Made by a program: the position numbers and the translations under genes. This document shows positions 2,727-31,483 of a DNA stretch of 64,000 nucleotides, one piece after another (the first letter of the stretch is position 1; the number at the start of each line of letters is the position of its first letter). The notes under the pieces were generated by a model. It ran no database searches, was not told where the DNA came from, and saw only the letters and a list, made by a program, of their open reading frames with translations. The DNA comes from a virus, in IMG/VR virus record IMGVR_UViG_3300045594_000099, positions 1 through 64,000 of that record; one strand, written 5' to 3'.

Positions 2727-3680
2727 ATGACCGTTAAGTCTCGCTCTAAGAAATTCGAAGTGAATGACTCTCGCTTTCCGAATGAGCATATCAAGAATAG
2801 AAGCAATGTCGTCAATGATTTGACCGCTATTGATGTCAATCTAAGATACATGCCGACATGGGAAGAAGCTAAAGCTTTTCTTCCAGATGCTATCATGTCA
2901 ACATGGGCTGCTAAGTCAGATGAGTATGACTTCACTGAGCATCAGAAAGATGCTCTTATGTATAGAGCACTACGAAAGAAGTTCCTGCCTCAATATCTAG
3001 AATTCGTTAACGTAGTGTTTTCTGTCGATGGAATGACAGCACACGATCTTTCGCACACACTTCGAAACAGGAATGCTTCTTTCGCAGTAGAATGCACAGG
3101 AGACAATTACAAGAATCGCAATGATGTTTCTATGCCAGAAGCCTATAATGAGCTTGGCTTATCGCATGAGTATGAAGCACTTGCTACACTTCAAATGGAT
3201 CTGTATGCTAAAGCAATCAATTCTGGCATGAGCGTGCAAGATGCAAGACTTATCTTGCCAAGAGGCATCCATCAGTTCGTAATGCTTCGTATGACTTTAG
3301 GCAATGCATTGGGGCTGATCACGCAAAGAATTGACACCCAGATCCAGCCGCGTTCAGATAATGTCTTTGCTCTTCAGCTTGCAGTCGCTATGTGCAAGAA
3401 ATGGCCCTTGCTTGCAACTCTTATCGATTTTGATGACACTAACTGGTACTATGTCAAAGAGACTACGACTAATTTTGCTTCTAGATTCTTCAAGCCACTT
3501 CCGCAAAATGACAAGTTTGAGAATGATGACATTGAATTCAAATTCGATGCAGATCCTCTGCATATCCCAGGTCAGAAGACATTCATCAAGTTGCTGAATA
3601 AGTATAAAGATGAATTGCTAGCAATCAGAAAGCAAGCAGAAGCAGATTATCCATGGGTTTTCGATGAGGACTATCGCTGA
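2727..3680 (+). CDS. thyX: Divergent ThyX-like (flavin-dependent thymidylate synthase fold) protein
   Basis: VVFSVDGMTAHDLSHTLRNRNASFAVECTGDNY aligns to the ThyX motif RHRxxSxxxxSxRY with H to N, second S to C and R to G; downstream DARLILPRG...MLRMTLGNALGLITQR resembles the ThyX AR-x-LP / N-x-R block. Confidence 0.6.
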   Translation: MTVKSRSKKFEVNDSRFPNEHIKNRSNVVNDLTAIDVNLRYMPTWEEAKAFLPDAIMSTWAAKSDEYDFTEHQKDALMYRALRKKFLPQYLEFVNVVFSVDGMTAHDLSHTLRNRNASFAVECTGDNYKNRNDVSMPEAYNELGLSHEYEALATLQMDLYAKAINSGMSVQDARLILPRGIHQFVMLRMTLGNALGLITQRIDTQIQPRSDNVFALQLAVAMCKKWPLLATLIDFDDTNWYYVKETTTNFASRFFKPLPQNDKFENDDIEFKFDADPLHIPGQKTFIKLLNKYKDELLAIRKQAEADYPWVFDEDYR

Positions 3681-5805: not shown

Positions 5806-6498
5806 ATGAAAAGAAAAGACAAAGTCTGCGACATGTCATTATTCAGCATTCAGTCTATAGATGACTGGGATGTAAATGACATCATAGATTATGCTGGGTT
5901 TGATAGTGAGACTTATGCAAAGCTTGATGACGCAGTCATTCCTAAGATGTACAGACTTTTCAACGTATGGCCTTTAGCAGATGCTCAGAAGCTTGTCAGT
6001 GATGTCAAGGAAGAGTATTCTAGGTCGAATCTGAAAGACATCGTAGTAGACAACAGCATCTATATCTCGGAAGAGATTGACATGCTAAGCGTAAGCAAAG
6101 CATTGAGCATCAGCAACAAAGACAAAGTATTCCGAGTAGATGACTTCAATGCAATGAAAGACTTCGATAAGGCTTTGATTAAGAAGCCAAGAACTAACGA
6201 AGAGCTTTATGAAGCAAAATATTCAGCTTTCGATACAATTATGAAAGATTTTGACAATCGAAGGTTTCAGAAGTCTGCAGTAGAAAATCCTAAAGAATCG
6301 TTAGAGTTTGCGATTCACGACTATTTAGAGAATGCAATTTATTGCTACGATGAAGAAGGTCTGTTAGAGATTCGTGGATTGCATCAAGCAGAATACTTCA
6401 TTCGCAAAATTGTTGGCAAAAGGAATTTCTCTGAGAATACATGGAAGATGCTTTCTTTCGCTTATGCAATTGATGAGAGGAAGTATTCGGGTGACTAA
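5806..6498 (+). CDS. Hypothetical protein
   Basis: ATG 5806 (MKRKDKV) preceded by aaaagga; upstream part of tracked ORF overlaps previous gene. Confidence 0.6.
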   Translation: MKRKDKVCDMSLFSIQSIDDWDVNDIIDYAGFDSETYAKLDDAVIPKMYRLFNVWPLADAQKLVSDVKEEYSRSNLKDIVVDNSIYISEEIDMLSVSKALSISNKDKVFRVDDFNAMKDFDKALIKKPRTNEELYEAKYSAFDTIMKDFDNRRFQKSAVENPKESLEFAIHDYLENAIYCYDEEGLLEIRGLHQAEYFIRKIVGKRNFSENTWKMLSFAYAIDERKYSGD

Positions 6499-7345
6499 AG
6501 CTACGCCAAGAGACTACTTCAAGAATCTAGACGCAGTCTACATCAATCTAGATGCAGCTGCAGAAAGACGAGAAGCTATAGAGAATTCTTTTTCGAACAC
6601 TTTCAGAAGTCTAACAAGGGTTGTTCCAATAGACTTCAAAGACAAGTTTGCTGTTGGTGTAGATACTAAGTTGCGGCTTATGGATGCTCTGCAGAACTAT
6701 GATGAAAAAGGCTACTTCAAGCGTTCGAATCAGTATAAGATCGAAGACATCGAAGACTTCAAGAATAGAAAGAATGACTGCAGATTCGTCAATGAAGTCT
6801 GGACACCTGAACAGTATGCTGCACAGGAAAGCCTGTCTCAGACATATAAGAAGATACTAGAAGACTTTCTAGCTAGCAAACTAGAACGTATCATGATTTT
6901 CGAAGACGATGCGCGTGCTAGAGATTTCATGAATCAAGAAATAGACATTCCTGACGATGCAGAGATTTTAGCATGGGGAGGCGCTACATCTTCAGTTCAG
7001 ACAGATGCTAGGCATTTTATGAACGAGCAGCCTTTTCACTTTCTTAGAGTAAGTGGCAAGCGCACAGCATGGTACTGCACTGCTTATGAATTCGCAAGAA
7101 CTGGTGCAGCTAAGCTTCTTGAAGACTTCAATTCTGTTCCAGCTTATACGACAGACACTATTATCAGATACACATTAGACAGAGCTACTGCATATCGTCT
7201 ATCGCCAATGGGCTTCGTTCAGGGCGATTCATCGTATCTAGCTAGAGAAGGCATCAGAATGCCATTGACTAGAGATGAAGCAAAGACATATGATTTCAAA
7301 AATGTAATTGAGCATAAAGCAAAATTGCAAGCAAGCGCAAATTAG
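6491..7345 (+). CDS. Glycosyltransferase family 25-like protein, paralog 1
   Basis: GTG 6491 after gaggaag; AVYINLDAAAERREAIE resembles the GT25 N-terminus (vInL..s.eRr); TPEQYAAQESLSQ and IMIFEDDARA resemble the gEiGC.lSH and ilEDD blocks. Confidence 0.55.
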   Translation: MTKATPRDYFKNLDAVYINLDAAAERREAIENSFSNTFRSLTRVVPIDFKDKFAVGVDTKLRLMDALQNYDEKGYFKRSNQYKIEDIEDFKNRKNDCRFVNEVWTPEQYAAQESLSQTYKKILEDFLASKLERIMIFEDDARARDFMNQEIDIPDDAEILAWGGATSSVQTDARHFMNEQPFHFLRVSGKRTAWYCTAYEFARTGAAKLLEDFNSVPAYTTDTIIRYTLDRATAYRLSPMGFVQGDSSYLAREGIRMPLTRDEAKTYDFKNVIEHKAKLQASAN

Positions 7346-7358
7346 AAAGAACAATTTC

Positions 7359-8216
7359 ATGGTTGTTATGAAGCCAAGAGACTACTTCAAGACAATCGAC
7401 GCAGTCTACATCAATCTAGATGCAGCCAAAGAAAGACGAGCCTCTATAGAACATGATTTTGGCAATGCATTCAGAAGTCTTACAAGAGTAGAGCCTGTTC
7501 ATTTCGATGACATGCGTTCAGCTGGCGTAGATGCGAAGATGCGGCTAATCGAATCAGCTGAAAGCTACGATGAAAAAGGCTACTTCAAATGTTCAGAGCA
7601 GTACAAGAAGATAAGTGCCGATCGTTTCAAGAAGCGAAAGAGTGGCAGCGTTCACGCTAATTCAGTCTGGACACCTGAACAGTATGCTGCGCAGGAAAGC
7701 CTGTCTCAGACATCTAGAAAGATCTTGCAAGCTTTTCTTAGCACTTCGTTGAATAAGCTTATGATTCTTGAAGACGATGCGCGTGCTAGAAATTTCATGA
7801 ATCAAGAAATTGACATCCCAGATGCAGACATTTTAGTGTGGGGTGGAGCAGTAACATCTGCACAATCTGATGCGAATAGATTCGCTAAGAACACTTCGTT
7901 CTGGTTTTCTAAAATTGATGGAAAGCATAATGCTTGGTATACGACAGCTTATGAAGTTTCCAGAGCTGGAGCAAGCAAGCTTCTTGAAGAGTATAATTCT
8001 CGTCCTGCTTACACAACAGATACAGTATGGCGATATGCTTTTGATGAAGTGAATGCTTACCATCTTATACCAATGGGATTTGTTCAGGGAGCGTCATCAT
8101 ATTTAGCTGACTCCGGCGTAGCAATGCCTTTGACTAGAGATGAAGCTGCAGCATATTGCTTCAAAGACATAACACATCGGACTAAAATTGTACAAAAGAA
8201 CAAAGTGGTTATATAA
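7359..8216 (+). CDS. Glycosyltransferase family 25-like protein, paralog 2 (tandem duplicate)
   Basis: About 60% identical by eye to 6491..7345 along its whole length; a near-identical 45-nt DNA stretch gtctggacacctgaacagtatgctgc.caggaaagcctgtctcagaca occurs in both. Confidence 0.55.
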   Translation: MVVMKPRDYFKTIDAVYINLDAAKERRASIEHDFGNAFRSLTRVEPVHFDDMRSAGVDAKMRLIESAESYDEKGYFKCSEQYKKISADRFKKRKSGSVHANSVWTPEQYAAQESLSQTSRKILQAFLSTSLNKLMILEDDARARNFMNQEIDIPDADILVWGGAVTSAQSDANRFAKNTSFWFSKIDGKHNAWYTTAYEVSRAGASKLLEEYNSRPAYTTDTVWRYAFDEVNAYHLIPMGFVQGASSYLADSGVAMPLTRDEAAAYCFKDITHRTKIVQKNKVVI

Positions 8217-8279
8217 TTATAAATATAAGGATTAAGAAGATTCCTTAGAATAACTTCTACAAAAAAGAAAGAATCGCGA

Positions 8280-8753
8280 ATGATTCCATACATTGAACTG
8301 ATTGGTCCAGACAGGTCTGGAAAGTCAACTATACTCAATTGTTTCAGAAAACGTCTTGAAAAAGACAAATTCTCTTTTGAGTTCATTCAAGACAGAGGCA
8401 TTGCAGATAGCGTTGTTCTTGATGCTTATTTCAATAGAACTAATGAAGATGTTCTTGATGAAAGACTAGCTTTTCTTGAATCTGCAAAACAGCATTACGA
8501 AATCATCTATGTGCATTCTAGCGCACCAATTCTTCAAAATAGAGTAGATGAAGAATTTGACAAAACTGATGCAGAAGACAGTTTCATGAATAAAGTCAAA
8601 GTTGATTCTAGCAAGCAATTAGAGCTTTACGACTTCTATTATGGCGTGTTCAAGTCTTTCATGCCATTTGTTTTTGAATATGATACTTCTTTGCATTCTA
8701 CCGATTTCATTGTAGACGAATTGCTTAAGAATAGAAAAGAAAGGGATTTGTAG
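8280..8753 (+). CDS. Deoxynucleoside monophosphate kinase (thymidylate-kinase-like P-loop)
   Basis: IELIGPDRSGKSTIL Walker A near N-terminus; QDRGIADSVV resembles the Tmk DR..S motif; 157 aa. Confidence 0.6.
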   Translation: MIPYIELIGPDRSGKSTILNCFRKRLEKDKFSFEFIQDRGIADSVVLDAYFNRTNEDVLDERLAFLESAKQHYEIIYVHSSAPILQNRVDEEFDKTDAEDSFMNKVKVDSSKQLELYDFYYGVFKSFMPFVFEYDTSLHSTDFIVDELLKNRKERDL

Positions 8754-11700
8754 ATGTCATACATTGGACTTCATCAGCATCTTGATTCTTCATGTTTGGA
8801 TGGTTTTCAGACTCGTCAAGAACTTGTATCAAGAGCAAAAAGTCTTGGCATGAATGCTGTAGCTATAACAGATCATGGAACTTGTGCAATTCATGTCAAG
8901 TTTGCGCAAGAATGTGCTAAGCAGTCAGATGACAATCTTACGATCAAGCCGATATTCGGTATGGAGTCATATCTTGTAGACGATGTTCATGATATCATGA
9001 CAGACAGGATAGCTCATACTAGAGCTGGAAAGGTCAAATACAATAAAGAGACTGGCGAACCTGAATTAGAGAAGCAAAGAGCTTCAGACTTCAATCATTG
9101 TTGCTTATGGGCTCAGAATGACAAGGGCTTGGAGAATCTTTGGACTGTGTCAACTCTTTCGTATACAGAAGGGTTCTACAGAAAGCCACGTATTGACTTC
9201 AATATGCTTAAGACGTATGGCGAAGGCTTGTTCGTATCAGATGGCTGCATGCTTTCTAGGGTGTCAAGATGCATAGCTAATGATGATATCAAAGGTGCTA
9301 TTGCATGGGAGAAGAAGCTTATTGATGCTGTTGGCAAAGAAAATGTTCTTGTAGAGATTCATACATGGCAGTTCTGCGATCCAAAGACTGAAGAGCAGTT
9401 CAATCTAAATAGCATAATGACGAAGACTAATAAAGTCAAGATTGAGATTGCTAAAGAGCTTGGTCTTAGAACTATAGCAGTCAATGATGCTCATTATGCA
9501 AAAAGAGAAGATTATCGTTGGCATGAGCTTGTATGGCAGTCAACTACAGGAAAAGGTAGCGATCTGAATGATGACAAGACTAGTGGACGTGGAGAGACAG
9601 CTGCTTGGGTCATGTCTGAAGATGAATGCTTCTATTGGCTAAAGAAGCATGGTCTTGATGATGAAGACATTCAGACAGCTATAGACAATACTCAATGGGT
9701 TGCAGATCATTGCAATGCGAAAATCAAGTTCGGCATGGTTCCACCGCGATATGGTGACTCTAAGGAAGACGATGACAGGTTGCTTGAAAAGCTTGTCTTA
9801 GAGGGTGCTAGGGAAAGAATTCCTTCTGTAGATCAAGCTCAAGAATATATGGCAGAGCTTAAGAAAGAGCTTGAGCTTATAGAGAAGACAGACTTGTCAG
9901 GATACTTCCTTATTGTCTGGGATTATGTCAACTTTGTCTTGTCAGATGATGAAGATGGCTCTAAGTATGGAATTGTAGGCAAGAAAGCTTCGTTGCTAGG
10001 TGTAGCACGTGGTTCAAGTGGAGCTTCAGTAGTATGCTACTTCTTGAGAATTACGAATATTGATCCGATAAAGAACAGTCTGTATTTCGAACGTTTTCTT
10101 ACAGCAGGACGTGTTGTATCGTCTGTCAACATCAAGTTTGAAGATGGATGGAAGAAATTCTCACCATCTGAAAAGATATCTCTATCTGATGGCACAAGTA
10201 AAGATGCATGGAAGCTTTTGTATGAAGAAGATGATACAGAATATGGGAAAGAGATAGATTCAAGCTTCGACTTCAAAGACTGCCCAGATATCGATCTCGA
10301 TTTTGAAGCTTCAGTCATTCCACAAGTAGATGCATATCTTAAGAAACGCTGGGGCGAATGGAATGTATGCAGAATCGGTACTGAACTACAAGGCAAGATA
10401 TCGACTTCGGTCCACGATGTATTCGCTATCCATGGATACTCTTCTTCAGACATATTCAATCTGAATCGGAAGATTGCTGCAACAGGCTGGGATACTGGTG
10501 AATACATGGAGCTTCAGACTTATGAAGATTTCATAGAATGCATATCTAAAGATGAAGACCTCAAGAAGATAGTAGATGAGACAGAATACTTCAAAGAGGC
10601 ATGGAATTTCGGTGGAAGAATCAGGACATATGGCGTGCATGCATCAGGCTATGTGATATCTAAGAAGTCATTGCTTGGCAAGATGCCGCTTCGTGTTGCA
10701 CAAGGCATTTTAGTGACTCAATTCTCTCATGATCAGGTTGCAAGCATGGGATTCATAAAGTATGATGTTCTCAAGCTTTCTTCACTTGGGACAATACGCG
10801 AAGTATATGAGAATGTACACGGCAAACTTGATCCCGAATCGATATATGCCGATATGCAGAATGACAAGCTATTCGATGGCGCTGCTATATGGAAGCCGAC
10901 ATGGGATGGAGATGTCTTGGGCATATTCCAGCTAGATACTCCATTAGGCAAGACTACTGCAACGAATGCTATAGTCAATTCAGTATCTGATGCAGGCATG
11001 ATTACAGCTGTTGATCGACCAGGTCTAGTACGAAGTGGACTAATCAAAGACTTCTACAAGGTCAGAAAAGGCGAAGAGGGATGTCCAAGCTACCATCCAT
11101 TCACAGATTCTATTCTTGAAGAGACTTCTGGCTTTGTCGTATATCAGGAGCAGATCATGAAGATCTACTCTAGGCTATGCAACATGAATATGGAGGAAGC
11201 AGACAATGTAAGGAAAGTTTTCTCTAAGAAGCAAGTCACTAAAGTGCCTGCAATGAAGAAGTTGCTTTATGATGTATGTCTTAATGACAAGAACTTCATA
11301 GACAGTGTTCCTGTGAAGTATTCATCTCCTAAAGAATGTCTTGACGATCTATGGGTTGGAATATCAAGAACAGCAGAATATTCATTCAACAAATCGCATT
11401 GCCTTGATGGTCACACTTTAGTAAAGCTAGATACTGGTGAATGCATATATATGTCTGAGTTATTCAAAAGATATGAATCTGGTGAAGAGCTGAAGATAAT
11501 GTCTATGATGCCAGATGGAAAGATAGCTTCTGCAAAAATTCATGAAGTAATGAAGTCTGGAATCAAAGAGTTGCTTACGATAACTCTTGCAAATGGAGCA
11601 CTTATTCGAGCAACTCCAGAGCATAGGTTCTTGACTACTAGAGGTTATGTCGCTGTGAAAGACTTTCGCGATGATGAGGAGCTTATATTCGATAGTAAGC

Positions 11701-13424
11701 ATAGATATGCACATACTTCATTGTCAAAAGCTATGAAAGATACACAGTCAAGAATTACTCATGAGCAAAGATGCAAGCATCAGCAAAATGTTCAGAAGAT
11801 TCATCCAGATAGATGCAAGAATGGGTATATTGCTGGGCAAAAATCATTGATGAGACTTAGGGAAGATGAAGAGTGGTCTAAAAGACATAATAAGAATACA
11901 TCGATTGGTATTCAAAAGTATTGGAATGGCATAGACGATAAAAAGCATGCAAGAAAATGGACTGGGTTCACTTTTTGGCAGACAATGTCTAAAGAAGAAC
12001 TCATGATATTCGAACAGTCTCGGGCCAAAAAGATGAAAGCTACATTAGCTAAAAAGACAGACGATCAGTGGCAAGAGATAACGGATAAAATTAGGAATAC
12101 TAAGCTTGAGCATGGATGTGTCAACTTCGGCAAGAAGACATTTTTGTCAGATGGAAGGCTTTGCGATTCTATGTTTGAAGCTAAGATTGGTGAGTATTTG
12201 ATTGACAGAGGTGTAAAGTTTAGTCTTCATAAACAACTCAGAGGGCAAGGCGACCATAAGCATGTATTCTGTGATTTTTATGCAAATGGCGTCTATATAG
12301 AAGCTGATGGTCTGTACAGAGGCGATGACTTCTTTAAGAATAAGAAGTATGGAGATGATTTGCCATTCTTAGTTTTGTATCCAAACGACTGGAAATATAA
12401 GATTGATGCTATGCTTATGGGAGATCACGTATCGAATGGCATCAAAGTCGTTTCTATTGAAAAGAAGCCTCTTCCTGGAAGATGGCATAAGACATATGGA
12501 ATGACATATGACATTGAGATGGATGACCATTATCCAGCAAACTTCATAGCAAATGGCATCGTATCGCACAATTCAATGTCATACGGCATGATAACAGCAT
12601 ACGAACAATATATGAAGGTCAGATGGCCATTGCAGTTCATATGCGCATCTTTGAATACAGATCCAGGTCAGATAGAGTTTCTGAAGTATGCTATAGTTCG
12701 TGGTTATAATGTCAAAACTCCCAATGTCAACAAATCAACAGACAAATATGTAGTAGACAACAATACTATATACATGCCAATGTGGTCTATAAAAGGTGTT
12801 GGTGGAAAAGCTGTTGAAGAGATTCTCAATAATGGTCCATATTCATCATATGATGACTTTCTAGACAAGACTACTGGAAGAGGTGGTCGAAAGAAGAATG
12901 TTCTTCAAAGTCTTATATCAATAGGCGCTTTTGATGGAGTAGATGAAAGAAGTAGATATGACCTGATGTGTGCATTTGCAGAATCTAAAGGACTAGAAAA
13001 ACCATATAAGAAGAATTTCGAATCTGACAGAATAATTGCTAAGATCGAGCAAGAACTTCTAGGTGTATCATTGTCATATGACGATGTTCTAGATAACAAA
13101 GACTGGCTGTCATCAGAATCTCCTCAATCAATGGCTGGTCTTATGAAGACTGATGTAGGTGAATCTACTAAGATTGCTGGCAAGATAACATCTACGAAGA
13201 CTAAGAATGCTAAGAATGGCTTGATGGCATGGGTTACGCTTAAGCTTGTGTCTCAAGAAGAAGTCAAGATAACAGTATTTGCAAATTCGTATTCTAGATT
13301 CAAAGACTATCTTTCTACTGGAGATTTAGTATCGATAATGTGCAAAAGAAGCTCGGATTTCAATGGCGCACCATCATTCATATGCAATTATGTGTTCAAC
13401 AAGTCTATTCAGCAAGACAAATAG
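8754..13424 (+). CDS. dnaE: DNA polymerase III alpha subunit (DnaE type) interrupted by an intein
   Basis: PHP motifs GLHQHLDSSCLDG and AITDHG; GVARGSSGASVVCYFLRITNIDPI..LYFERFL; PDIDLDF; GVHASGYVI; IKYDVLKL; GIFQLD; DRPGLV; YQEQIM; FNKSH/(intein)/SMSYGMITAY. Confidence 0.93.
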   Translation: MSYIGLHQHLDSSCLDGFQTRQELVSRAKSLGMNAVAITDHGTCAIHVKFAQECAKQSDDNLTIKPIFGMESYLVDDVHDIMTDRIAHTRAGKVKYNKETGEPELEKQRASDFNHCCLWAQNDKGLENLWTVSTLSYTEGFYRKPRIDFNMLKTYGEGLFVSDGCMLSRVSRCIANDDIKGAIAWEKKLIDAVGKENVLVEIHTWQFCDPKTEEQFNLNSIMTKTNKVKIEIAKELGLRTIAVNDAHYAKREDYRWHELVWQSTTGKGSDLNDDKTSGRGETAAWVMSEDECFYWLKKHGLDDEDIQTAIDNTQWVADHCNAKIKFGMVPPRYGDSKEDDDRLLEKLVLEGARERIPSVDQAQEYMAELKKELELIEKTDLSGYFLIVWDYVNFVLSDDEDGSKYGIVGKKASLLGVARGSSGASVVCYFLRITNIDPIKNSLYFERFLTAGRVVSSVNIKFEDGWKKFSPSEKISLSDGTSKDAWKLLYEEDDTEYGKEIDSSFDFKDCPDIDLDFEASVIPQVDAYLKKRWGEWNVCRIGTELQGKISTSVHDVFAIHGYSSSDIFNLNRKIAATGWDTGEYMELQTYEDFIECISKDEDLKKIVDETEYFKEAWNFGGRIRTYGVHASGYVISKKSLLGKMPLRVAQGILVTQFSHDQVASMGFIKYDVLKLSSLGTIREVYENVHGKLDPESIYADMQNDKLFDGAAIWKPTWDGDVLGIFQLDTPLGKTTATNAIVNSVSDAGMITAVDRPGLVRSGLIKDFYKVRKGEEGCPSYHPFTDSILEETSGFVVYQEQIMKIYSRLCNMNMEEADNVRKVFSKKQVTKVPAMKKLLYDVCLNDKNFIDSVPVKYSSPKECLDDLWVGISRTAEYSFNKSHCLDGHTLVKLDTGECIYMSELFKRYESGEELKIMSMMPDGKIASAKIHEVMKSGIKELLTITLANGALIRATPEHRFLTTRGYVAVKDFRDDEELIFDSKHRYAHTSLSKAMKDTQSRITHEQRCKHQQNVQKIHPDRCKNGYIAGQKSLMRLREDEEWSKRHNKNTSIGIQKYWNGIDDKKHARKWTGFTFWQTMSKEELMIFEQSRAKKMKATLAKKTDDQWQEITDKIRNTKLEHGCVNFGKKTFLSDGRLCDSMFEAKIGEYLIDRGVKFSLHKQLRGQGDHKHVFCDFYANGVYIEADGLYRGDDFFKNKKYGDDLPFLVLYPNDWKYKIDAMLMGDHVSNGIKVVSIEKKPLPGRWHKTYGMTYDIEMDDHYPANFIANGIVSHNSMSYGMITAYEQYMKVRWPLQFICASLNTDPGQIEFLKYAIVRGYNVKTPNVNKSTDKYVVDNNTIYMPMWSIKGVGGKAVEEILNNGPYSSYDDFLDKTTGRGGRKKNVLQSLISIGAFDGVDERSRYDLMCAFAESKGLEKPYKKNFESDRIIAKIEQELLGVSLSYDDVLDNKDWLSSESPQSMAGLMKTDVGESTKIAGKITSTKTKNAKNGLMAWVTLKLVSQEEVKITVFANSYSRFKDYLSTGDLVSIMCKRSSDFNGAPSFICNYVFNKSIQQDK
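11400..12572 (+). mobile_element. 391-aa intein in DnaE at the FNKSH site, with a non-LAGLIDADG (PD-(D/E)xK / DUF559-like) endonuclease insert
   Basis: Begins CLDGHTLVKL (Cys1 codon 11400-11402); block B ATPEHRF; blocks F/G TYDIEMDDHYPANFIANGIVSHN then Ser+1 (12573); central CDSMFEAKIGEYLIDRGVKF...FCDFYANGVYIEADG. Confidence 0.85.
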
Positions 13425-23304: not shown

Positions 23305-24597
23305 ATGGAAGAAGCAACTAAATTAGAAGACATGGCTGTCTACTTGATGACAGATCTGACTTCATTGAAGAGAATGTACTCTCTTGGTCTTAGAGAGAGT
23401 TATTTCGAAGAGATTCAGAACAAGAAAGCATTTGCATTCTCTGTAGAATACTGGCAAGGATCGAATCTTAAGAAAGCGCCTACTTGTAGTCTGCTTGAAA
23501 AGGAAGTCCCAAGTCTTCATGTGAAATCGACAGACGTATCTGCAACATACATTGTAGAAGCTCTTAAGAAACGGCTTATATCAAACAGGATGAAAAGAGC
23601 TTTGCTGGATTCAGCAGACTCTTTGAAAGAGCATCCAAAAGAAGCACTAGAAATTCTGTCTAATCAGCTATGGTCTATTTCGAAGCAAGCTAAAGACAGA
23701 AAGAATGTTTCAGAACTGTATGATACTGTAGAAAGTCGAAAAGAAAGATATCATAAACGCTCAGAAATGTCTAAGAATGGCATAATGGGCGCATCTATTG
23801 GTTTTCCTGAAATCGATCAAGTCACTATGGGTCTTGCAAATGGAGAGCTATGTACAATAGCAGCACCTACTAAGACTGGTAAGACTTGGATTGGTCTAAA
23901 GATTGTTGCAGAAGCTATGAAAGCTAAGAAGAGAGCAGTCTTCTTCACGCTTGAGCTTTCTGTAGCAGATATAGAAGATAGACTTGACGCTATTCTATCA
24001 GGTGTCTCATATGCAAGGCTTTCTACAGGTACTTTGTCTTCTATAGAAGTCGGAAAGCTGTCAAAGATTCAGCAGTCGTACGATTCATATGGACAAGTGC
24101 TGATTTCTAAGCCACGAATAGGTGAAAGAACAGTTCCAGACATGATGAAAGTAATACGAGATTTTGATGCGGAGTTAGTAGTCATAGATCAGCTTTCATT
24201 CATGGAAGCATCGAATCCTGGAACATCAAAGACAGAGAACGCATCTAGAATAATCGATGAGCTTAAGATGTCGGTATCTGAAGACGAAGACAGCATGATT
24301 CCAGTCTACTTGCTTTCTCAGATGAATAGAGCTGCATCTTTTACTGAAAATGGAAGAGGAAAGCTTACAAATATAGCTCTTACATCAAATATAGAGAATG
24401 CTTCTGATCTGATAATCGGTCTTGGTGCTACAAAAGAGCAAAGAATCAACAATACAATGGTCGTAGAAATCTTGGGTTCAAGAAGAACAAGTATGCGATC
24501 GTGGCTAATATATCGAAATCTTCAAGATAAGACAGACTTCCACGTCATAAAAGAAATGACTGACGATGAAGACGCAAGTGAAGAGGGAGAATCGTGA
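23305..24597 (+). CDS. dnaB: DnaB-family replicative helicase
   Basis: GFPEIDQVTMGLANGELCTIAAPTKTGKTWIGLKI; Walker B VVIDQLSFM; LLSQMNRA. Confidence 0.85.
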   Translation: MEEATKLEDMAVYLMTDLTSLKRMYSLGLRESYFEEIQNKKAFAFSVEYWQGSNLKKAPTCSLLEKEVPSLHVKSTDVSATYIVEALKKRLISNRMKRALLDSADSLKEHPKEALEILSNQLWSISKQAKDRKNVSELYDTVESRKERYHKRSEMSKNGIMGASIGFPEIDQVTMGLANGELCTIAAPTKTGKTWIGLKIVAEAMKAKKRAVFFTLELSVADIEDRLDAILSGVSYARLSTGTLSSIEVGKLSKIQQSYDSYGQVLISKPRIGERTVPDMMKVIRDFDAELVVIDQLSFMEASNPGTSKTENASRIIDELKMSVSEDEDSMIPVYLLSQMNRAASFTENGRGKLTNIALTSNIENASDLIIGLGATKEQRINNTMVVEILGSRRTSMRSWLIYRNLQDKTDFHVIKEMTDDEDASEEGES

Positions 24598-25643
24598 TGC
24601 AGTATGTTTCTGGAAGAGGACTTAGAATTGCTTTTGTAACGCATAAAGGCAATCTGAATGGAAGTCTGACATGGTTCAATTCTATGAAGGAGATAGAGTT
24701 TTTGAAGCAAGTATTCAAGGGCTCTGTGGTTGATGGCGTAAGCATGAAGCCAGATGCTAAAGATTTCAATACTACATTCAAGCAGGCGTCTAAAAGACGT
24801 TATGACCTGATCGTCATGAACATTCAGAAGAAGTATGCTTCTGAAAGAACGCATGCTGGCTTCAAAATGATGAATGACTTCATCAAGCAATCTGAAGCGC
24901 CTGTGCTAGCGCTTATAGATGATGTAGTGATAGCAGAATCGCCATCTACGAACATGTCCTCTTTCGACAACAAGATGGCAGTGCTAGGAATGAAGATAGA
25001 CAGCAAGAAGCTAAAAGACGCTGGATATCATAATGTCGTCATCTCAAACAGAATCAAAGGCATGTCTGTCATGCTGAAGTCAGATAGACGTTTCATGACT
25101 TCTGCTAAGCCTGTAGACTTCGCTTACATTGGAATGCTTCGCAACAAGAGACTTAGATTAGTAGTAGATGCTTTCAATGCTCTTTCGAAAGCAGGATATT
25201 CATGCAAATTCTATGGAGCTGATGCTATCTATGACATGGATTCGGAAGAATCTTCTAGCATTCTAGATTATGTTGAGTTTGAAGTGCTTGACAAAGTTGA
25301 TGCTGACAAAGTAGTGGACGTCATGTCTGAAGCTAGATACTCCATTCTTCCAAGATACGATTATGGAAAAGACATACTCTCAAATAGGATATACGAAGAT
25401 GATTCTGCTAATTGCTTGATGCTAGTTGATGAGCAATATGGCCTGCATGACTTGTTCGATAAAGAAGTGCGATATCAGAATGACAAGGATCTGATAGCTT
25501 TAGTCAAGCTGTTCGATGATCATCCAGAACTGCAGTCGTACATGCTTGACCAGCAGCATGTTAGCGTAGATAGAGAATATCATGCTTCCAGAGCAGAGCT
25601 AGAGCAAGCTTTGATAGATTCTGTAAAAGAGCTTCTGCGATGA
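24594..25643 (+). CDS. T4 beta-glucosyltransferase-like protein (candidate DNA hydroxymethyl-pyrimidine glycosyltransferase)
   Basis: 349 aa versus 351 aa for T4 Bgt as I remember it. Collinear blocks by eye: RIAFVTHKGNL / KIAIINMGNNV; YDLIVMN / YDRLIVVN; DFAYIGMLRNKRLR..CKFYG / DVIYGGSFRSGQRE..IEFFG; LSNRIYEDDSANCLMLVDEQYG / ITLRVWETMASDAVMLIDEEFD. Confidence 0.5.
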   Translation: MMQYVSGRGLRIAFVTHKGNLNGSLTWFNSMKEIEFLKQVFKGSVVDGVSMKPDAKDFNTTFKQASKRRYDLIVMNIQKKYASERTHAGFKMMNDFIKQSEAPVLALIDDVVIAESPSTNMSSFDNKMAVLGMKIDSKKLKDAGYHNVVISNRIKGMSVMLKSDRRFMTSAKPVDFAYIGMLRNKRLRLVVDAFNALSKAGYSCKFYGADAIYDMDSEESSSILDYVEFEVLDKVDADKVVDVMSEARYSILPRYDYGKDILSNRIYEDDSANCLMLVDEQYGLHDLFDKEVRYQNDKDLIALVKLFDDHPELQSYMLDQQHVSVDREYHASRAELEQALIDSVKELLR

Positions 25644-26749: not shown

Positions 26750-27688
26750 ATGTCAACTACGTTAAAAGATCTGCAAGCATTTATAGACGACAATCTTGAT
26801 AAAGTAATTCATAGAGGAATAGATTGCAAATATACTGACGACAAGCTGCAATTCAAAGACGATGAAAATCTGTACGATATTTCGCCTGTTGCAATATCAG
26901 AACTTTCTGCTATTCTGCATTTGCCAAACAAGTATATAGAATCTATCCCTTCAGATTTGCGTACGATGAACATCATGTATTTCCTGATGCGTTTCGAAGG
27001 CAATCTTACATTCTCTATCTCAGGCAATGCGATTTCAGAAGTCATTGAATCAGATAACATTCGTCCTGTCGACAGCATCATTTCAGAGCTTTCAGAAGTG
27101 TTTGATGCAAATGAAGTCAATGTCATTCAACCAGAGATTGACAACAAGCACATCTCAATGTGGATTTATTTTGCAGACGAAGTTGCTACTTCTAAGTTCG
27201 GTGCATTCAATCAAGGCTACAATCTTTATATTGGAACAGACAAGAAAGATTCTGTGTATTGCAATCCTATTCTTGTCAATCCACTTGAAGAAACAGCTAT
27301 TGAAGTATTGGTCGATGACGATGATGAAGTAGACAATTCGTCTATAACAGAAAAAATTGAATACGTCATGTTATTCAAGAATGTCTTTGATGCGCTTAAT
27401 CTAGCTTCTGAAAATAGAATAGAAGACATCAATGTATTCTTCAATATCATGTCTTCCGGTTTTCGTATGACTTCTAAAGCTAAGAAAGCTGTACTAGAAG
27501 AATTGCAATTGTCAGATGCTTCTACTATATCTGATGCAATAAAAGCTTCATTGTCTGCAGAGACTAGAATGAAGAAGCTTTCAGATGTCAAGTCTATCGC
27601 TACATTCATAGGAAAGTATTCTGAATTCAAGAACCCGAAATTCTGCTCTGAATGCGGACAGCCGATCATTGAGGATGTGAATCTTTGA
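26750..27688 (+). CDS. Hypothetical protein, possibly DUF932-like, with C-terminal zinc ribbon
   Basis: ISPVAISELSAILHLPNKYIESIPSDL resembles the DUF932 a..QL...lgiP..Y block; C-terminal FCSECGQPI. Confidence 0.35.
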   Translation: MSTTLKDLQAFIDDNLDKVIHRGIDCKYTDDKLQFKDDENLYDISPVAISELSAILHLPNKYIESIPSDLRTMNIMYFLMRFEGNLTFSISGNAISEVIESDNIRPVDSIISELSEVFDANEVNVIQPEIDNKHISMWIYFADEVATSKFGAFNQGYNLYIGTDKKDSVYCNPILVNPLEETAIEVLVDDDDEVDNSSITEKIEYVMLFKNVFDALNLASENRIEDINVFFNIMSSGFRMTSKAKKAVLEELQLSDASTISDAIKASLSAETRMKKLSDVKSIATFIGKYSEFKNPKFCSECGQPIIEDVNL

Positions 27689-28686
27689 AGCTAGCAATAC
27701 TGATTACAGAGAAAGACTCAGAAGCATCGCTTGTCAATATCGTCAATGATGCTATGCATGTCAACAACGCTAAGACATTCGTAGTAGATGACGGGTCAAG
27801 AATTCCAATTTCTATAGAAGGCAATAGCAAGCTAGCAGTTTTCAGACACGATAAGAACATTGGCTATGGAGCAGAAATGAACTTTCTGCTTGATTGCATA
27901 AAGTATGACGATTTCGATTATGTCATGTTTGCAGAAGCAGATGACAGAATAGACTATGTCAATCTAAACAAAGTCTTGCAAAAAGTCAGCAACTTGCCAT
28001 GCTACTATGACATGATCAAGTGCTCGTATTACAAGAGACAGACACCAGAAAGTGAGTTTTGCATTCCAGAATCTGAATTAGCTTTCTATGAAGATGGTCT
28101 TCTGAAGAACAAAGACATTCCTATGATGTTAGATCATCATAATGCTATCTGGTCTATTCTTTATTCTTCTGCATTTATAGAGAATCATAGTTTTGTAGAG
28201 GCTAAAGGTGCTGGATGGGTAGACATACCTTTTGCGTATGATACTTTGCTAGATGCTGATGCTGTATACAGAATTGCAACACCAATCTACAAGTATACAT
28301 TGCATAACGTCACTAATTCATCAGATGTTTTCGATGCATCTACTCCATTTGCAAGATTGCTAGATGTTCAGAAGATTTTGTTTGATGAAGGCATAGACAA
28401 CATTCCTGTAGAAGTTCTATGGTGCTATATTCATCAAATTCTGAAAATGATAGATCTTTGCTTCTATAACAAACGAAAGCTTTCTGAATATCAAACCAAC
28501 AGATTTGCTATCTATCAATGCATGAACTTCATATACAGCATCATGAATGACAGATCATTTGCTAGCATATTGCGTGTCTTCAAGAATGACAGAAGTCTTC
28601 TTGACAGTGTATCTTCAGAGCAGATAGCTATTTTAGACGATTTCAACAAGAACGGCAATATAGACAAATGGATAAGCAGTCTTTAA
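27685..28686 (+). CDS. Glycosyltransferase family 2 (soluble)
   Basis: LAILITEKDSEASLVNIV...TFVVDDGSRIP (GT-A DDGS); FAEADD (DxD-like); TTG start overlapping previous stop. Confidence 0.65.
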   Translation: MKLAILITEKDSEASLVNIVNDAMHVNNAKTFVVDDGSRIPISIEGNSKLAVFRHDKNIGYGAEMNFLLDCIKYDDFDYVMFAEADDRIDYVNLNKVLQKVSNLPCYYDMIKCSYYKRQTPESEFCIPESELAFYEDGLLKNKDIPMMLDHHNAIWSILYSSAFIENHSFVEAKGAGWVDIPFAYDTLLDADAVYRIATPIYKYTLHNVTNSSDVFDASTPFARLLDVQKILFDEGIDNIPVEVLWCYIHQILKMIDLCFYNKRKLSEYQTNRFAIYQCMNFIYSIMNDRSFASILRVFKNDRSLLDSVSSEQIAILDDFNKNGNIDKWISSL

Positions 28687-29876: not shown

Positions 29877-30425
29877 TTGCTTCTGTCAGATACTTCTATC
29901 AAAAGAATCAATGCTATTGAGCCATTCAATGAAGACAATTTGCAAGCAGCGTCATATGATTTGACATTAAGCGACGTATTCATTGTTACAGATGCAGAAA
30001 TATTATGTCCTGGAGATGCAAGTCTTACAAGGAAATGCTATTCTACTAAATTAGTAACGCATCAGTACAAGCTCATGCCAAACGAATTCATCTTGTCATC
30101 TACTATTGAGAAAGTAAGCATTCCCAATAACATCGGAGCAAGATTCGAAGGCAAATCGTCTCTTGGCCGCATCGGCCTAGCTACGCATATAACTGCTGGC
30201 TTCATTGACCCTGGCTTTGAAGGCAATATCACTCTTGAGATAAAGAATGAAGCATCGTATCCAATACTTCTCACTTGTGGGATGAAGATAGGACAGATAT
30301 GCTTCTACTATATGGATGAAGCTAGTTCTGAACCGTATGGAAGCACTAGCAAGTCGCATTATCAAAATCAGTTTTCAGCAACTAGTTCGTGGTACGTATC
30401 TAGTTTTACAAAGCAGCATAAGTAA
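29877..30425 (+). CDS. dcd: dCTP deaminase (Dcd family)
   Basis: MLLSDTSIKR..IEPFNEDNLQAASYDLTL; EGKSSLGRIGLATHITAGFIDPGFEGNITLEIKN. Confidence 0.9.
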   Translation: MLLSDTSIKRINAIEPFNEDNLQAASYDLTLSDVFIVTDAEILCPGDASLTRKCYSTKLVTHQYKLMPNEFILSSTIEKVSIPNNIGARFEGKSSLGRIGLATHITAGFIDPGFEGNITLEIKNEASYPILLTCGMKIGQICFYYMDEASSEPYGSTSKSHYQNQFSATSSWYVSSFTKQHK

Positions 30426-30470
30426 TATATAATTATATTAAATAGTTTTATTATGAATATGGAGAATAAT

Positions 30471-30944
30471 ATGAAGGTCTCAGAGGAATTCAGACAAGCT
30501 ATTGATAAGCCAGAAGGCAATATCAGAGTATATTTTGCTAATTCGTGGTTCAATGAAAATAAAGCAAAAGCTTCTGATTTAGGTTTCGATGTTCTAAAGA
30601 AGTTCGATGTGGAAGTATTCAATCCGCGTTTTGATTCTCCACAAATTGGAAAGAATCCAACAGAAGCTGAACGACAAGCTAATTTCGATGCAAATCTTTC
30701 TGCTATGCGAAGTTCAGATGTTCTTATCGCTTCTACAGAAGGACTTGATTCTGGCACTATCTGGGAATGCGGCTATGGTTCTGCTTTAGGAATTCCAACA
30801 TTTGGTTTTGCACCATTGCTTCCAGAAGGTGTGCCATTCAATCTAATGCTTGCACAATCTATGAAGCATATCTTCCTTTCAAGCGAAGCTCTTGCTTCTT
30901 ATCTTAAAGATGGCAAAGAGCCTGACAGGATTGGTGCTTGCTAA
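30471..30944 (+). CDS. Nucleoside 2-deoxyribosyltransferase-family protein (NDT / Rcl-like)
   Basis: RVYFANSWFNENKA (Y.AG..F motif) and LDSGTIWECGYGSALGIPTFGF (D.GT..E.G.A); start at ATG 30471 after ggagaataat, tracked ORF opens at 30453. Confidence 0.75.
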   Translation: MKVSEEFRQAIDKPEGNIRVYFANSWFNENKAKASDLGFDVLKKFDVEVFNPRFDSPQIGKNPTEAERQANFDANLSAMRSSDVLIASTEGLDSGTIWECGYGSALGIPTFGFAPLLPEGVPFNLMLAQSMKHIFLSSEALASYLKDGKEPDRIGAC

Positions 30945-31483
30945 TGTTGACTGATGAAGACATTGTAGATTCAGTAATCGATGCTGCGAATGAGATTAGT
31001 GGACAAGCTTATGTAGTCAGATACAATGGAAAGCCAACTTTGCATAGGCAGAATCTTTATGAGCATCATGGATCTGTAGCTCAGTTGCTGCTGTTGCTAT
31101 TCAAAGTCTATGATGTTCCAGAATTCGAGCAATTGAATGCTTTGAAACGTGCTTTGACGCATGATTTGCCAGAGATATGGCTTGCTGACATCCCATTCAA
31201 CACTCATGTAGACAATCCGCATTTTTCTGAAGCATATGACTATTCTGAGCAGAAGATACTGAATAGCAAGCTAGAAAAGTTCGACTATTCAGTATCCAAG
31301 TATGGCAGAGTGTGGCATTTAGTGAAAGCAGCAGATTGCTTAGATGTAGTCCTGTTCTGCAAGCAAGAGTTCAATCTTGGCAACAAGTCAGATACAGTCA
31401 TGTCTATGTATAAGCAGGATGTAGAGCTAGCTGCAAAGCATTTAAGAGAATTGGATAGCAATTATGCAAGATTTGAAAAGTAA
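30938..31483 (+). CDS. HD-domain 5'-deoxynucleotidase (YfbR-like)
   Basis: RQNLYEHHGSVAQLLLLL ... ALKRALTHDLPEIWLADIP parallels YfbR E-H-s..vA ... HDasE..tGDlP. Confidence 0.7.
   Translation: MLMLTDEDIVDSVIDAANEISGQAYVVRYNGKPTLHRQNLYEHHGSVAQLLLLLFKVYDVPEFEQLNALKRALTHDLPEIWLADIPFNTHVDNPHFSEAYDYSEQKILNSKLEKFDYSVSKYGRVWHLVKAADCLDVVLFCKQEFNLGNKSDTVMSMYKQDVELAAKHLRELDSNYARFEK

Follow-up and report, generated by a model that had tools for sequence, protein, structure and literature searches.

In a 64,000-nucleotide stretch of viral DNA (IMG/VR record IMGVR_UViG_3300045594_000099, positions 1 to 64,000; the whole stretch is referred to here as the window), the gene at 2727-3680 encodes a divergent relative of ThyX, the flavin-dependent thymidylate synthase (FDTS). 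On balance, we favour the reading that its product is a neofunctionalised ThyX-fold flavoenzyme making a C5-modified, probably hydroxymethylated, pyrimidine deoxynucleoside monophosphate (dNMP) for glycosylated phage DNA. The protein is probably not making deoxythymidine monophosphate (dTMP) for ordinary DNA and most likely acts as the entry enzyme of a virus-specific, non-canonical pyrimidine pathway. Hydroxymethylation or a different pyrimidine substrate, the activities put forward in a preliminary description made from the sequence alone, are the leading candidates. The neofunctionalisation which that description proposed gains circumstantial support from a canonical paralog in 20 loci, the restriction of the clade to viruses, linkage to genes for nucleoside 2-deoxyribosyltransferase (NDT), dNMP nucleotidases and thymidylate-kinase-like (TMK-like) kinases, and the presence of TAGT glycosyltransferase genes abutting the variant gene. 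The gene and its diagnostic parts are as follows, where clade groups are the 27 groups, dereplicated at <80% identity, of 89 IMG/VR loci carrying the variant.

2727..3680, forward strand: variant ThyX-fold protein, 317 aa, ATG start (Pfam Thy1, AlphaFold2, Foldseek, dN/dS)
3063..3110, forward strand: altered ThyX signature, residues R113-Y128 (RNRNASFAVECTGDNY), placed by a residue map to Thermotoga maritima ThyX
3093-3104, forward strand: core clade motif C123-T-G-D126, within the altered signature
3246..3263, forward strand: kept nucleotide-phosphate arginine block R174-LILPR179, equivalent to R147-xx-L-P of T. maritima (R174 in 27/27 clade groups)
3324..3362, forward strand: clade-specific block Q200-R201-I-D203-T-Q205-I-Q207-P208-R-S-D211-N212 (R201, D203, Q207 and D211 invariant in 27/27 groups)

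Fold, signature residues and conservation of the variant

Profile matches and structure prediction identify the product of 2727-3680, with high confidence, as a real member of the Thy1 family with a predicted ThyX fold. It passes the threshold of Pfam PF02511 (Thy1; E=2.1e-9, 37.9 bits vs a cutoff of 24.8) and falls well short of that of the thyX equivalog TIGR02170 (EC 2.1.1.148; 25.9 vs 87.9 bits). An AlphaFold2 model built from a 105-sequence alignment had a mean predicted local distance difference test (pLDDT) of 95.0 and a predicted template modelling score (pTM) of 0.92, and Foldseek matched it to >50 ThyX/PolB chains at probability 1.00. The best PDB fold matches were the ThyX proteins of M. 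tuberculosis, PBCV-1 and T. maritima together with PolB (target-normalised TM 0.62-0.82, 12-18% identity). Fold and Pfam family are thus shared with canonical ThyX/FDTS (T. maritima TM0449, PDB 1O26; M. tuberculosis, 2AF6; PBCV-1 A674R, 2CFA), from which the variant differs by ~100 extra residues, mostly a C-terminal extension, and its clade by a virus-only distribution, a different gene neighbourhood and a set of substitutions at functional positions (S88/R90/Y91 to C/G/D, H53 to L, E86 to V/A, R165 to G/K and H178 to Q).

The canonical motif RHRxxSxxxxSxRY reads RNRNASFAVECTGDNY in the variant (residues 113-128), as the preliminary description had it, and so departs from the canonical signature. 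In a 123-sequence alignment that included T. maritima ThyX (TmThyX; the sequence used for numbering was verified as identical to PDB 1KQ4), the signature residues correspond as R78 to R113, H79 to N114, R80 to R115, S83 to S118, S88 to C123, G89 to T124, R90 to G125 and Y91 to D126; further pairs are H53 to L87, E58 to E92, Q75 to H110, E86 to V121, R147 to R174, R165 to G192, R174 to R201 and H178 to Q205. An independent profile-to-PDB alignment with C. glutamicum ThyX set RhrtlsfaveCtGD of the family profile opposite RHRHFSFSQLSQRF. Because both alignments gave the same register, the earlier alignment by eye was right, and its second Ser to Cys and Arg to Gly replacements are borne out by each (S88 to C123, R90 to G125). 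The kept blocks that it listed are likewise in place, with VVFSVDG at residues 96-102, DARLILPRG at 172-180 and LGNALGLITQR at 191-201. Its His to Asn change holds for the window (H79 to N114) and fails as a trait of the clade, since 21 of the 27 groups retain RHR. To the clade-wide changes S88 to C and R90 to G must be added Y91 to D126.

In ThyX, Ser88 and Tyr91 are strictly conserved and Arg90 is conserved, and the S88A, R90A and Y91A substitutions slow the depletion of flavin carbinolamine that is triggered by deoxyuridine monophosphate (dUMP) (PMC8316439; PMC11940539); Arg174 acts as the activator of dUMP (PMC8316439). The equivalents of R147 and R174 (window R174 and R201), the dUMP-binding and dUMP-activating arginines, were invariant in 27/27 clade groups. 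The window protein also keeps the equivalents of R78, R80 and E58, while those of H79, R165 and H178 are altered. Retention of the nucleotide residues and of most flavin residues, together with replacement of the methylene-transfer trio, is the pattern that would be expected of altered chemistry on a similar substrate.

The clade is discrete and almost purely viral. An exhaustive HMMER search of 1.84 billion representatives yielded 569 relatives when the limit was set at E<=1e-3; 44 reached E<=1e-30. The top ~47 of the relatives form a core group whose members score 150-370 bits higher with a hidden Markov model (HMM) of the clade than with one of canonical ThyX. Throughout this core the R90 position was never Arg and the Y91 position never Tyr, the R147/R174 equivalents were always kept, and the typical motif was RHRxxSFSAxC(T/S)GD(R/K). 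The variant-minus-canonical HMM score ranged from +284 to +386 bits for the clade and from -78 to -308 for canonical ThyX. We found 206 relatives in IMG/VR, cellular relatives on two contigs of metagenome-assembled genomes (one genome each of 185,579 species), and among 50,697 deposited phage records a single full-length carrier, Geobacillus phage GR1 (OK896991); the deposited phages searched held no DNA near-identical to the window.

Across the 27 groups the clade signature comprises T59-W60, P88, H110, R113, R115, S118 and C123-[TS]-G-D126-[RK], followed by Y160, D172-A-R174-xx-L-P-[RK] and Q200-R201-x-D203-x-Q205-x-Q207-P208-xx-D211-N212, or in short C-[TS]-G-D-[RK] plus QRxDxQxQP. At the altered positions C was present in 27/27, G in 25/27 and D in 26/27 groups; the invariance of Cys in this IMG/VR set is partly by construction, since it was fetched with peptide patterns containing CTGD, and in an unbiased set Cys occupied this column in 61/122 sequences. 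The lineage of the window is itself peculiar in its His79 to Asn change and in having no basic residue after the Asp.

A 108-kb viral contig encodes an identical protein, and two other contigs encode orthologs of 97% identity. Against these orthologs the dN/dS of 2727-3680 was 0.096 (43.6 synonymous and 18.4 non-synonymous differences). The ORF (open reading frame) was unbroken in all 89 loci, and ~45 positions were at least 85% conserved over the 27 groups, with overall identity down to ~27%.

Gene neighbourhoods of the clade

To the ORFs within +-10 kb of the variant in the 89 loci, which were clustered, we compared those of 80 canonical-ThyX viral loci (67 groups) from the same collection, whose ThyX carried the canonical signature in 77/80 cases and C[TS]GD in 0/80. 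Co-occurrence was counted per dereplicated group within 10.5 kb, with family identities taken from Pfam and significance given as Fisher p, which overstates independence where cases are related:

NDT: clade 22/27 (81%), control 0/67 (0%), p=5e-17
YfbR-like HD 5'-deoxynucleotidase: clade 13/27, control 0/67, p=7e-9
NT5C (pyrimidine deoxy-5'-nucleotidase) fusion: clade 16/27, control 3/67, p=2e-8
Any dNMP 5'-nucleotidase (HD or NT5C): clade 24/27 (89%), control 3/67 (4%), p=5e-16
dUTPase_2: clade 18/27, control 3/67, p=5e-10
TMK-like kinase: clade 14/27 (52%), control 1/67 (1%), p=1.5e-8, from weak family matches
dCMP (deoxycytidine monophosphate) deaminase: clade 8/27, control 4/67, p=0.004
NDP-sugar epimerase/dehydratase: clade 8/27, control 2/67, p=6e-4
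Fpg/Nei: clade 6/27, control 0/67, p=4e-4
Trimeric dUTPase or dCTP deaminase (DCD): clade 6/27, control 14/67, not significant

Bias of the HMMs was rejected as a source of this contrast, as the case-built models detect the NDT (4e-32), HD protein (1e-20) and deoxynucleoside kinase (dNK; 7e-10) of phage SP-15; at E<=1 the controls yielded one marginal NDT match. NDT lay at a median of ~700 bp from the variant, and gene orders were stereotyped, either dUTPase_2-NDT-HD-variant-(TMK)-DnaE or dUTPase_2-NT5C-variant-NDT-epimerase...DnaE. The cassette was also found beside replication modules other than DnaE, such as a D5-type primase-helicase with weak PolB hits, and its occurrence there and in a Geobacillus siphovirus indicates that it is not merely the property of one phage lineage. 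The profile of the NDT partner matched true NDTs best (6EVS, 9e-25), with DNPH1 at ~1e-3, and an identity as a DNPH1/MilB-type dNMP hydrolase was not supported. Twenty loci, belonging to three groups, encode a canonical ThyX (RHRTWSYNEISRRY; RHRTWSYNE[IV]SRRY; Pfam 6e-52) 2-3.6 kb upstream of the variant. That a single cassette holds a pair of Thy1 paralogs speaks against their being redundant, and the pairing parallels that of td with gp42 in T4 and of gp9 with gp130 in SP-15.

Several further features of these neighbourhoods were observed. The Fpg/Nei-family DNA glycosylase (cluster c9; for example L080 3226-4023) recurs beside the putative base-modification cassette. The NAD-dependent NDP-sugar epimerase/dehydratase (cluster c4; L093 3034-4020), which resembles RmlD and GDP-mannose dehydratase, lies a few genes from the variant, and no recognisable glycosyltransferase was found nearby in the marine groups that have it. 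Six paralogous ORFs in tandem (L054 4959-8000; 148-176 aa, one cluster) stand immediately upstream of the pair of canonical and variant ThyX genes. In the control locus L145, two Thy1-family ORFs (9971-10630 and 11870-12916) each have a higher score with the canonical HMM than with that of the variant, so that the duplication of ThyX there is of another kind.

The window represents a region of phage replication and nucleotide metabolism (NAD-dependent DNA ligase, SNF2 helicase, DnaE, 5'-3' exonuclease, RecA, DnaB and primase) in which searches with E. coli ThyA and TmThyX (tblastn) and with the Thy1 HMM over all six-frame ORFs found no thymidylate synthase besides 2727-3680. Its genes that bear on the proposed pathway are:

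6473..7345, forward strand: putative GT25-like glycosyltransferase, paralog a, tentative (ATG start; Pfam Glyco_transf_25 E=5.9e-4, below cutoff)
7359..8216, forward strand: putative GT25-like glycosyltransferase, paralog b, tentative (Pfam Glyco_transf_25 E=7.2e-4, below cutoff)
8280..8753, forward strand: small P-loop kinase of 157 aa, weakly thymidylate-kinase-like, a candidate dNMP kinase (Pfam Thymidylate_kin E=0.017)
24594..25643, forward strand: glycosyltransferase-like protein (Glyco_trans_1_2) between DnaB and primase (Pfam PF13524 E=8.2e-8, 32.7 bits vs a cutoff of 25)
27685..28686, forward strand: GT2-family glycosyltransferase, borderline (Pfam PF00535, 23.6 bits vs a cutoff of 23.3)
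29877..30425, forward strand: dCTP deaminase/dUTPase-superfamily enzyme, supplying dUMP/dUTP and depleting dCTP (Pfam DCD E=1.8e-36)
30453..30944, forward strand: NDT family protein, the signature partner of the clade (Pfam PF05014 E=2e-16)
30938..31483, forward strand: YfbR-like HD 5'-deoxynucleotidase (Pfam PF12917 E=9e-14)

The best PDB sequence matches of the small kinase were thymidylate kinases (E~0.2), and its relatives matched Thymidylate_kin at 3.4e-4 (the ortholog in locus L007) and 4.3e-4 (the GR1 equivalent). The two GT25-like paralogs are 60% identical and share an invariant E-D-D motif, and a homolog of paralog b is named 'GR25 family glycosyltransferase' by JGI. The AlphaFold2 model of paralog b (pLDDT 70.6) had Mimivirus R655 as its sole significant fold match (probability 1.0, TM 0.43-0.47), and a sequence-to-PDB search with the pair gave no match. 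In L007, the closest non-identical relative of the window (variant 48% identical, syntenic), the slot of these two genes is filled by GT8/GT25-like/GT8, two strong GT8 genes flanking a GT25-like homolog, and in both it is followed by the 157-aa TMK-like kinase and DnaE. The occurrence of different glycosyltransferases in the same syntenic slot suggests in-situ swapping of transferase families.

TAGT (TET-Associated Glycosyltransferase, PF20691) genes were found near the variant in three groups. In L018 the gene (7515-8285) begins at the stop codon of the variant, in L019 it belongs to an operon ordered variant-NDT-HD-TAGT-DXD-glycosyltransferase, with this second transferase last, and in L011 it lies 860 bp downstream of the variant. 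A TET/JBP or C5-methyltransferase gene as the reason for TAGT was rejected, as the ORFs of L011, L018 and L019 that had a Pfam annotation or were tested included none; a few small ORFs of these loci are unannotated. A glycosyltransferase of the GR1 type occurs in group 7, and none was detected near the L004 and L005 members.

In GR1 (L001), a siphovirus with a complete genome, the variant is the only thymidylate-synthase-like gene, accompanied by two NDTs, an HD protein, a glycosyltransferase, a TMK-like P-loop protein, a dUTPase and a thymidine kinase. Side observations in this phage are an NAD(P)H nitroreductase/dihydropteridine reductase encoded next to the variant on its upstream side, an amidoligase and gamma-glutamylcyclotransferase pair, and the second NDT copy (coordinates of these observations: L001 11208-11807 and 23228-24460; L177 8491-8973). 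The first of these could serve the variant as a reductase of flavin or pterin, and the amidoligase and cyclotransferase could be further tailoring enzymes. A literature search found no paper on GR1 or on any member of the clade.

Proposed pathway, precedents and competing explanations

Under our preferred reading, the enzyme would still bind flavin through the R78, R80 and E58 equivalents and, in the pose known from ThyX, a dNMP of the uracil type through the R147 and R174 equivalents, and would still place a one-carbon unit on C5. In place of the S88/R90/Y91 trio, which in ThyX brings methylene transfer to its end, there is Cys-x-Gly-Asp, so that the exocyclic-methylene intermediate may instead be captured by water (or the flavin may use O2), giving a 5-hydroxymethyl (or 5-hydroxy) pyrimidine dNMP. 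The most likely product would be 5-hydroxymethyl-dUMP (hmdUMP), a C5-hydroxy product being less likely than a C5-hydroxymethyl one. Retention of R201, D203 and Q207 (R174, D176 and Q180 of TmThyX), together with linked supply enzymes that all make dUMP, favours dUMP as the substrate. The small TMK-like kinase would then phosphorylate the product, the phage DnaE polymerase would put the modified nucleotide into DNA, and the base would be decorated there by glycosyltransferases, TAGT in the relatives and the putative GT25-like or GT8 enzymes in the lineage of the window. Meanwhile, dUTPase/DCD, the dNMP 5'-nucleotidase and NDT may provide dUMP while draining or recycling the canonical competitor; the 5'-nucleotidase, dUTPase_2 and NDT found in the clade would fit such an exclusion. 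More speculatively, the nucleotidase would turn dTMP into thymidine, from which NDT, acting on thymidine and uracil, would yield deoxyuridine and thymine, so that host thymidine deoxyribose could be recycled into the dUMP pool.

The gene set of the clade, namely a dNTP pyrophosphatase or deaminase, a dNMP nucleotidase, a thymidylate synthase paralog, a dedicated kinase and DNA sugar transferases, has the architecture of known base-replacement pathways, and it is from this likeness that we propose a C5-hydroxymethyl dNMP. Precedents for the architecture are the cytosine replacement of T4 and RB69 (PMC13326640) and the Z-genome phages with the NDT-family protein DmtZ (PMC12884076). Known phage entry enzymes for C5-modified pyrimidines are all ThyA-fold thymidylate synthase paralogs, paired with a dNMP kinase and glycosyltransferases (PMC13326640). 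T4 gp42 dCMP hydroxymethylase, the dUMP hydroxymethylases of phages with 5-hydroxymethyldeoxyuridine (hmdU) and the 5-hydroxy-dCMP synthases RB69 gp48 and DLP3 gp80 follow the same logic as the pathway proposed here (PMC13326640; PMC8989533), and a housekeeping-type paralog is encoded in the same genome both in ThyA-fold systems and in the 20 variant loci. The ThyA-fold enzymes differ from the variant in their unrelated fold and in their cofactor logic, ThyX being natively a flavoenzyme, and the described ThyA-based pathways lack NDT and 5'-nucleotidase partners.

A documented recruitment of the ThyX fold to non-housekeeping pyrimidine C5 modification is PolB (PDB 4P5B), the polyoxin UMP/dUMP C5-methylase, which ranked 8 among the structural matches of 2727-3680 (Foldseek TM 0.73). 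The likeness was compared by fold; unlike the variant, PolB is still a methylase by its PDB name and is part of an antibiotic cluster in bacteria, not of a replication cassette in a phage. DmtZ, the phage dAMP hydrolase/deoxyribose-5-phosphate transferase of the NDT family (PMC12884076), is analogous to the NDT partner of the clade, although it acts on purines and the clade NDT is nearer to classical NDTs (match to 6EVS as above).

Bacillus phage SP-15, with its experimentally known hypermodified, glycosylated deoxyuridine, encodes a divergent Thy1 protein, gp130, for which a role as hmdUMP synthase has been hypothesised (Kropinski et al. 2018, PMC5977210), alongside a canonical Thy1, gp9. It resembles the clade in having a YfbR-like 5'-nucleotidase, gp90, and an NDT, gp127, which is encoded three genes upstream of gp130. 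A relationship of gp130 to the window family was rejected (hhalign probability 0.1%), and its fold match to the variant was weak (rank 16 in BFVD). The gp130 suggestion was the only precedent in the literature searched, which held no description of a ThyX-fold hydroxymethylase or of the clade.

Several considerations weigh against our preferred reading. The functional evidence for the clade is circumstantial, wholly a matter of guilt by association, and the IMG/VR cases, being motif-retrieved, are possibly dominated by related lineages. Only about half of the groups had a detected glycosyltransferase, several showing none that was recognisable, and the GT25-like assignments in the window are sub-threshold. 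GR1 encodes integrases, and in a phage whose DNA is fully substituted these would be uncommon, if still conceivable. Some members of the unbiased clade have S/T/G/A at the Cys123 position, so a Cys-nucleophile mechanism cannot be general, and Cys123 as a universal catalytic nucleophile is weakened as a candidate. The NDT partner is transferase-like and would also fit a salvage or pool-balancing role. Finally, in the window and in GR1 alike the variant is the sole thymidylate-synthase-like gene and stands beside dUMP-supplying enzymes and a thymidylate-kinase-like kinase, which is the classic context of a real thymidylate synthase too.

That last point leads to the main alternative, that of a bona fide flavin-dependent thymidylate synthase converting dUMP to dTMP, which we consider unlikely but worth serious attention. 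Methylene transfer would here have been re-solved with the Cys/Asp pair and a downstream basic residue, and the partners would form a salvage and pool-balancing cassette feeding dTTP synthesis. The passing of the Thy1 threshold and the kept R78, R80, R147 and R174 equivalents agree with it, as do the R or K directly after the Asp in most clade members, which could stand in for R90, an NDT partner resembling a true transferase, as in salvage, and neighbours that include DCD/dUTPase, dCMP deaminase and thymidylate-kinase-like kinases around the only candidate synthase of the window and of the complete GR1 genome. Yet in the 20 loci where canonical ThyX lies at most 3.6 kb away a second synthase would be redundant, and the dNMP 5'-nucleotidases (including the pyrimidine-specific NT5C type) that mark the clade and hardly occur at canonical-ThyX loci would undo dTMP synthesis. 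Moreover, the clade is essentially absent from cellular genomes, unlike housekeeping ThyX, TAGT DNA glycosyltransferases abut the variant, and all three of the residues to which strict conservation and a critical kinetic role are ascribed have been replaced.

A cytosine substrate is, in our estimate, improbable, though still worth considering. The variant would then be a ThyX-fold dCMP hydroxymethylase (or hydroxylase or methylase) in a T4-like pathway, with dTMP coming from canonical ThyX or a host thymidylate synthase. Co-occurrence with canonical ThyX would mirror T4 td plus gp42 (for the T4 pathway, PMC13326640), TAGT is a family associated with TET, whose phage members generate 5-hydroxymethylcytosine (hmC), the dCTP deaminase of the window would deplete dCTP, and the new invariant acidic residues D126, D203 and D211 could recognise the N4 amino group. 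However, the uracil-contacting and uracil-activating arginine (R174 of TmThyX, R201 here) is invariant, as are the D176 and Q180 equivalents, whereas in ThyA-fold enzymes the switch from U to C needs a changed base-contact residue (PMC13326640). In addition, the linked dUTPase, dCMP deaminase and DCD all yield dUMP, and nucleotidases of the NT5C type are dUMP/dTMP-oriented according to their Pfam description.

Simple decay, or a non-catalytic ThyX remnant, which the preliminary description had kept as its alternative and to which the lost signature residues and the score under the TIGR02170 cutoff might point, is effectively refuted by the dN/dS of 0.096, ORFs unbroken in 89/89 loci, a very confidently predicted fold and replaced positions that are themselves conserved as a new motif across a deep clade.

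Returning to the neofunctionalised flavoenzyme, we tentatively extend the proposal to the clade as a whole, with rather less conviction than for the single gene. The clade may represent a second, independent phage entry enzyme for modified pyrimidines, a flavin-dependent ThyX-fold C5-hydroxymethylase or hydroxylase of dUMP (or dCMP) with a Cys-x-Gly-Asp loop, heading a widespread virus-only cassette. Three functions would be combined in this cassette: making the modified dNTP (TMK-like kinase), destroying or recycling the canonical competitor (5'-nucleotidase and NDT, the latter swapping thymine for uracil on deoxyribose) and feeding DNA glycosylation (TAGT, GT8 and GT25-like enzymes).

Characterised phage pathways for pre-replication C5-pyrimidine modification (hmC, hmU and its derivatives, 5-methylcytosine and 5-hydroxycytosine) all begin at a ThyA-fold paralog. 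If our proposal is correct, the other thymidylate synthase fold has been recruited for the same purpose, with new flavin chemistry and unexpected partners (NDT and dNMP nucleotidases), and many uncultured marine and Firmicutes phages, as well as GR1, would carry an undescribed hypermodified base. Hundreds of genomes of uncultured phages that are now annotated with 'thymidylate synthase' would then be flagged as carriers of hypermodified DNA, and for annotation the lesson is that ThyX-like does not imply thymidylate synthase. Such bases would bear on phage-host arms races (evasion of restriction and CRISPR) and on sequencing bias in viromes, and the clade may be a source of new nucleotide-modifying flavoenzymes and DNA glycosyltransferases. 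As one member resides in the cultured phage GR1, the hypothesis is directly testable.

Other features of the window and its sister contig

Directly after the HD nucleotidase gene of the window, a small ORF at 31464-31925 matches HTH (helix-turn-helix) and NUMOD1, a homing-endonuclease-like DNA-binding module. The DnaE gene of the window (8754-13424) holds a 391-aa intein (11400-12572) that starts with CLDGHTLV, ends with VSHN|S and is inserted after ...FNKSH. The counterpart of this DnaE on the near-identical 108-kb contig (L002/L015), 97% identical to it, has no intein, which points to a recent gain or loss. This sister contig also carries, just upstream of the ligase, an IS605 OrfB/TnpB gene (L002 821-2107; Cas12f1-like TNB domain) together with a gene for a 2417-aa CBM_4_9 protein.

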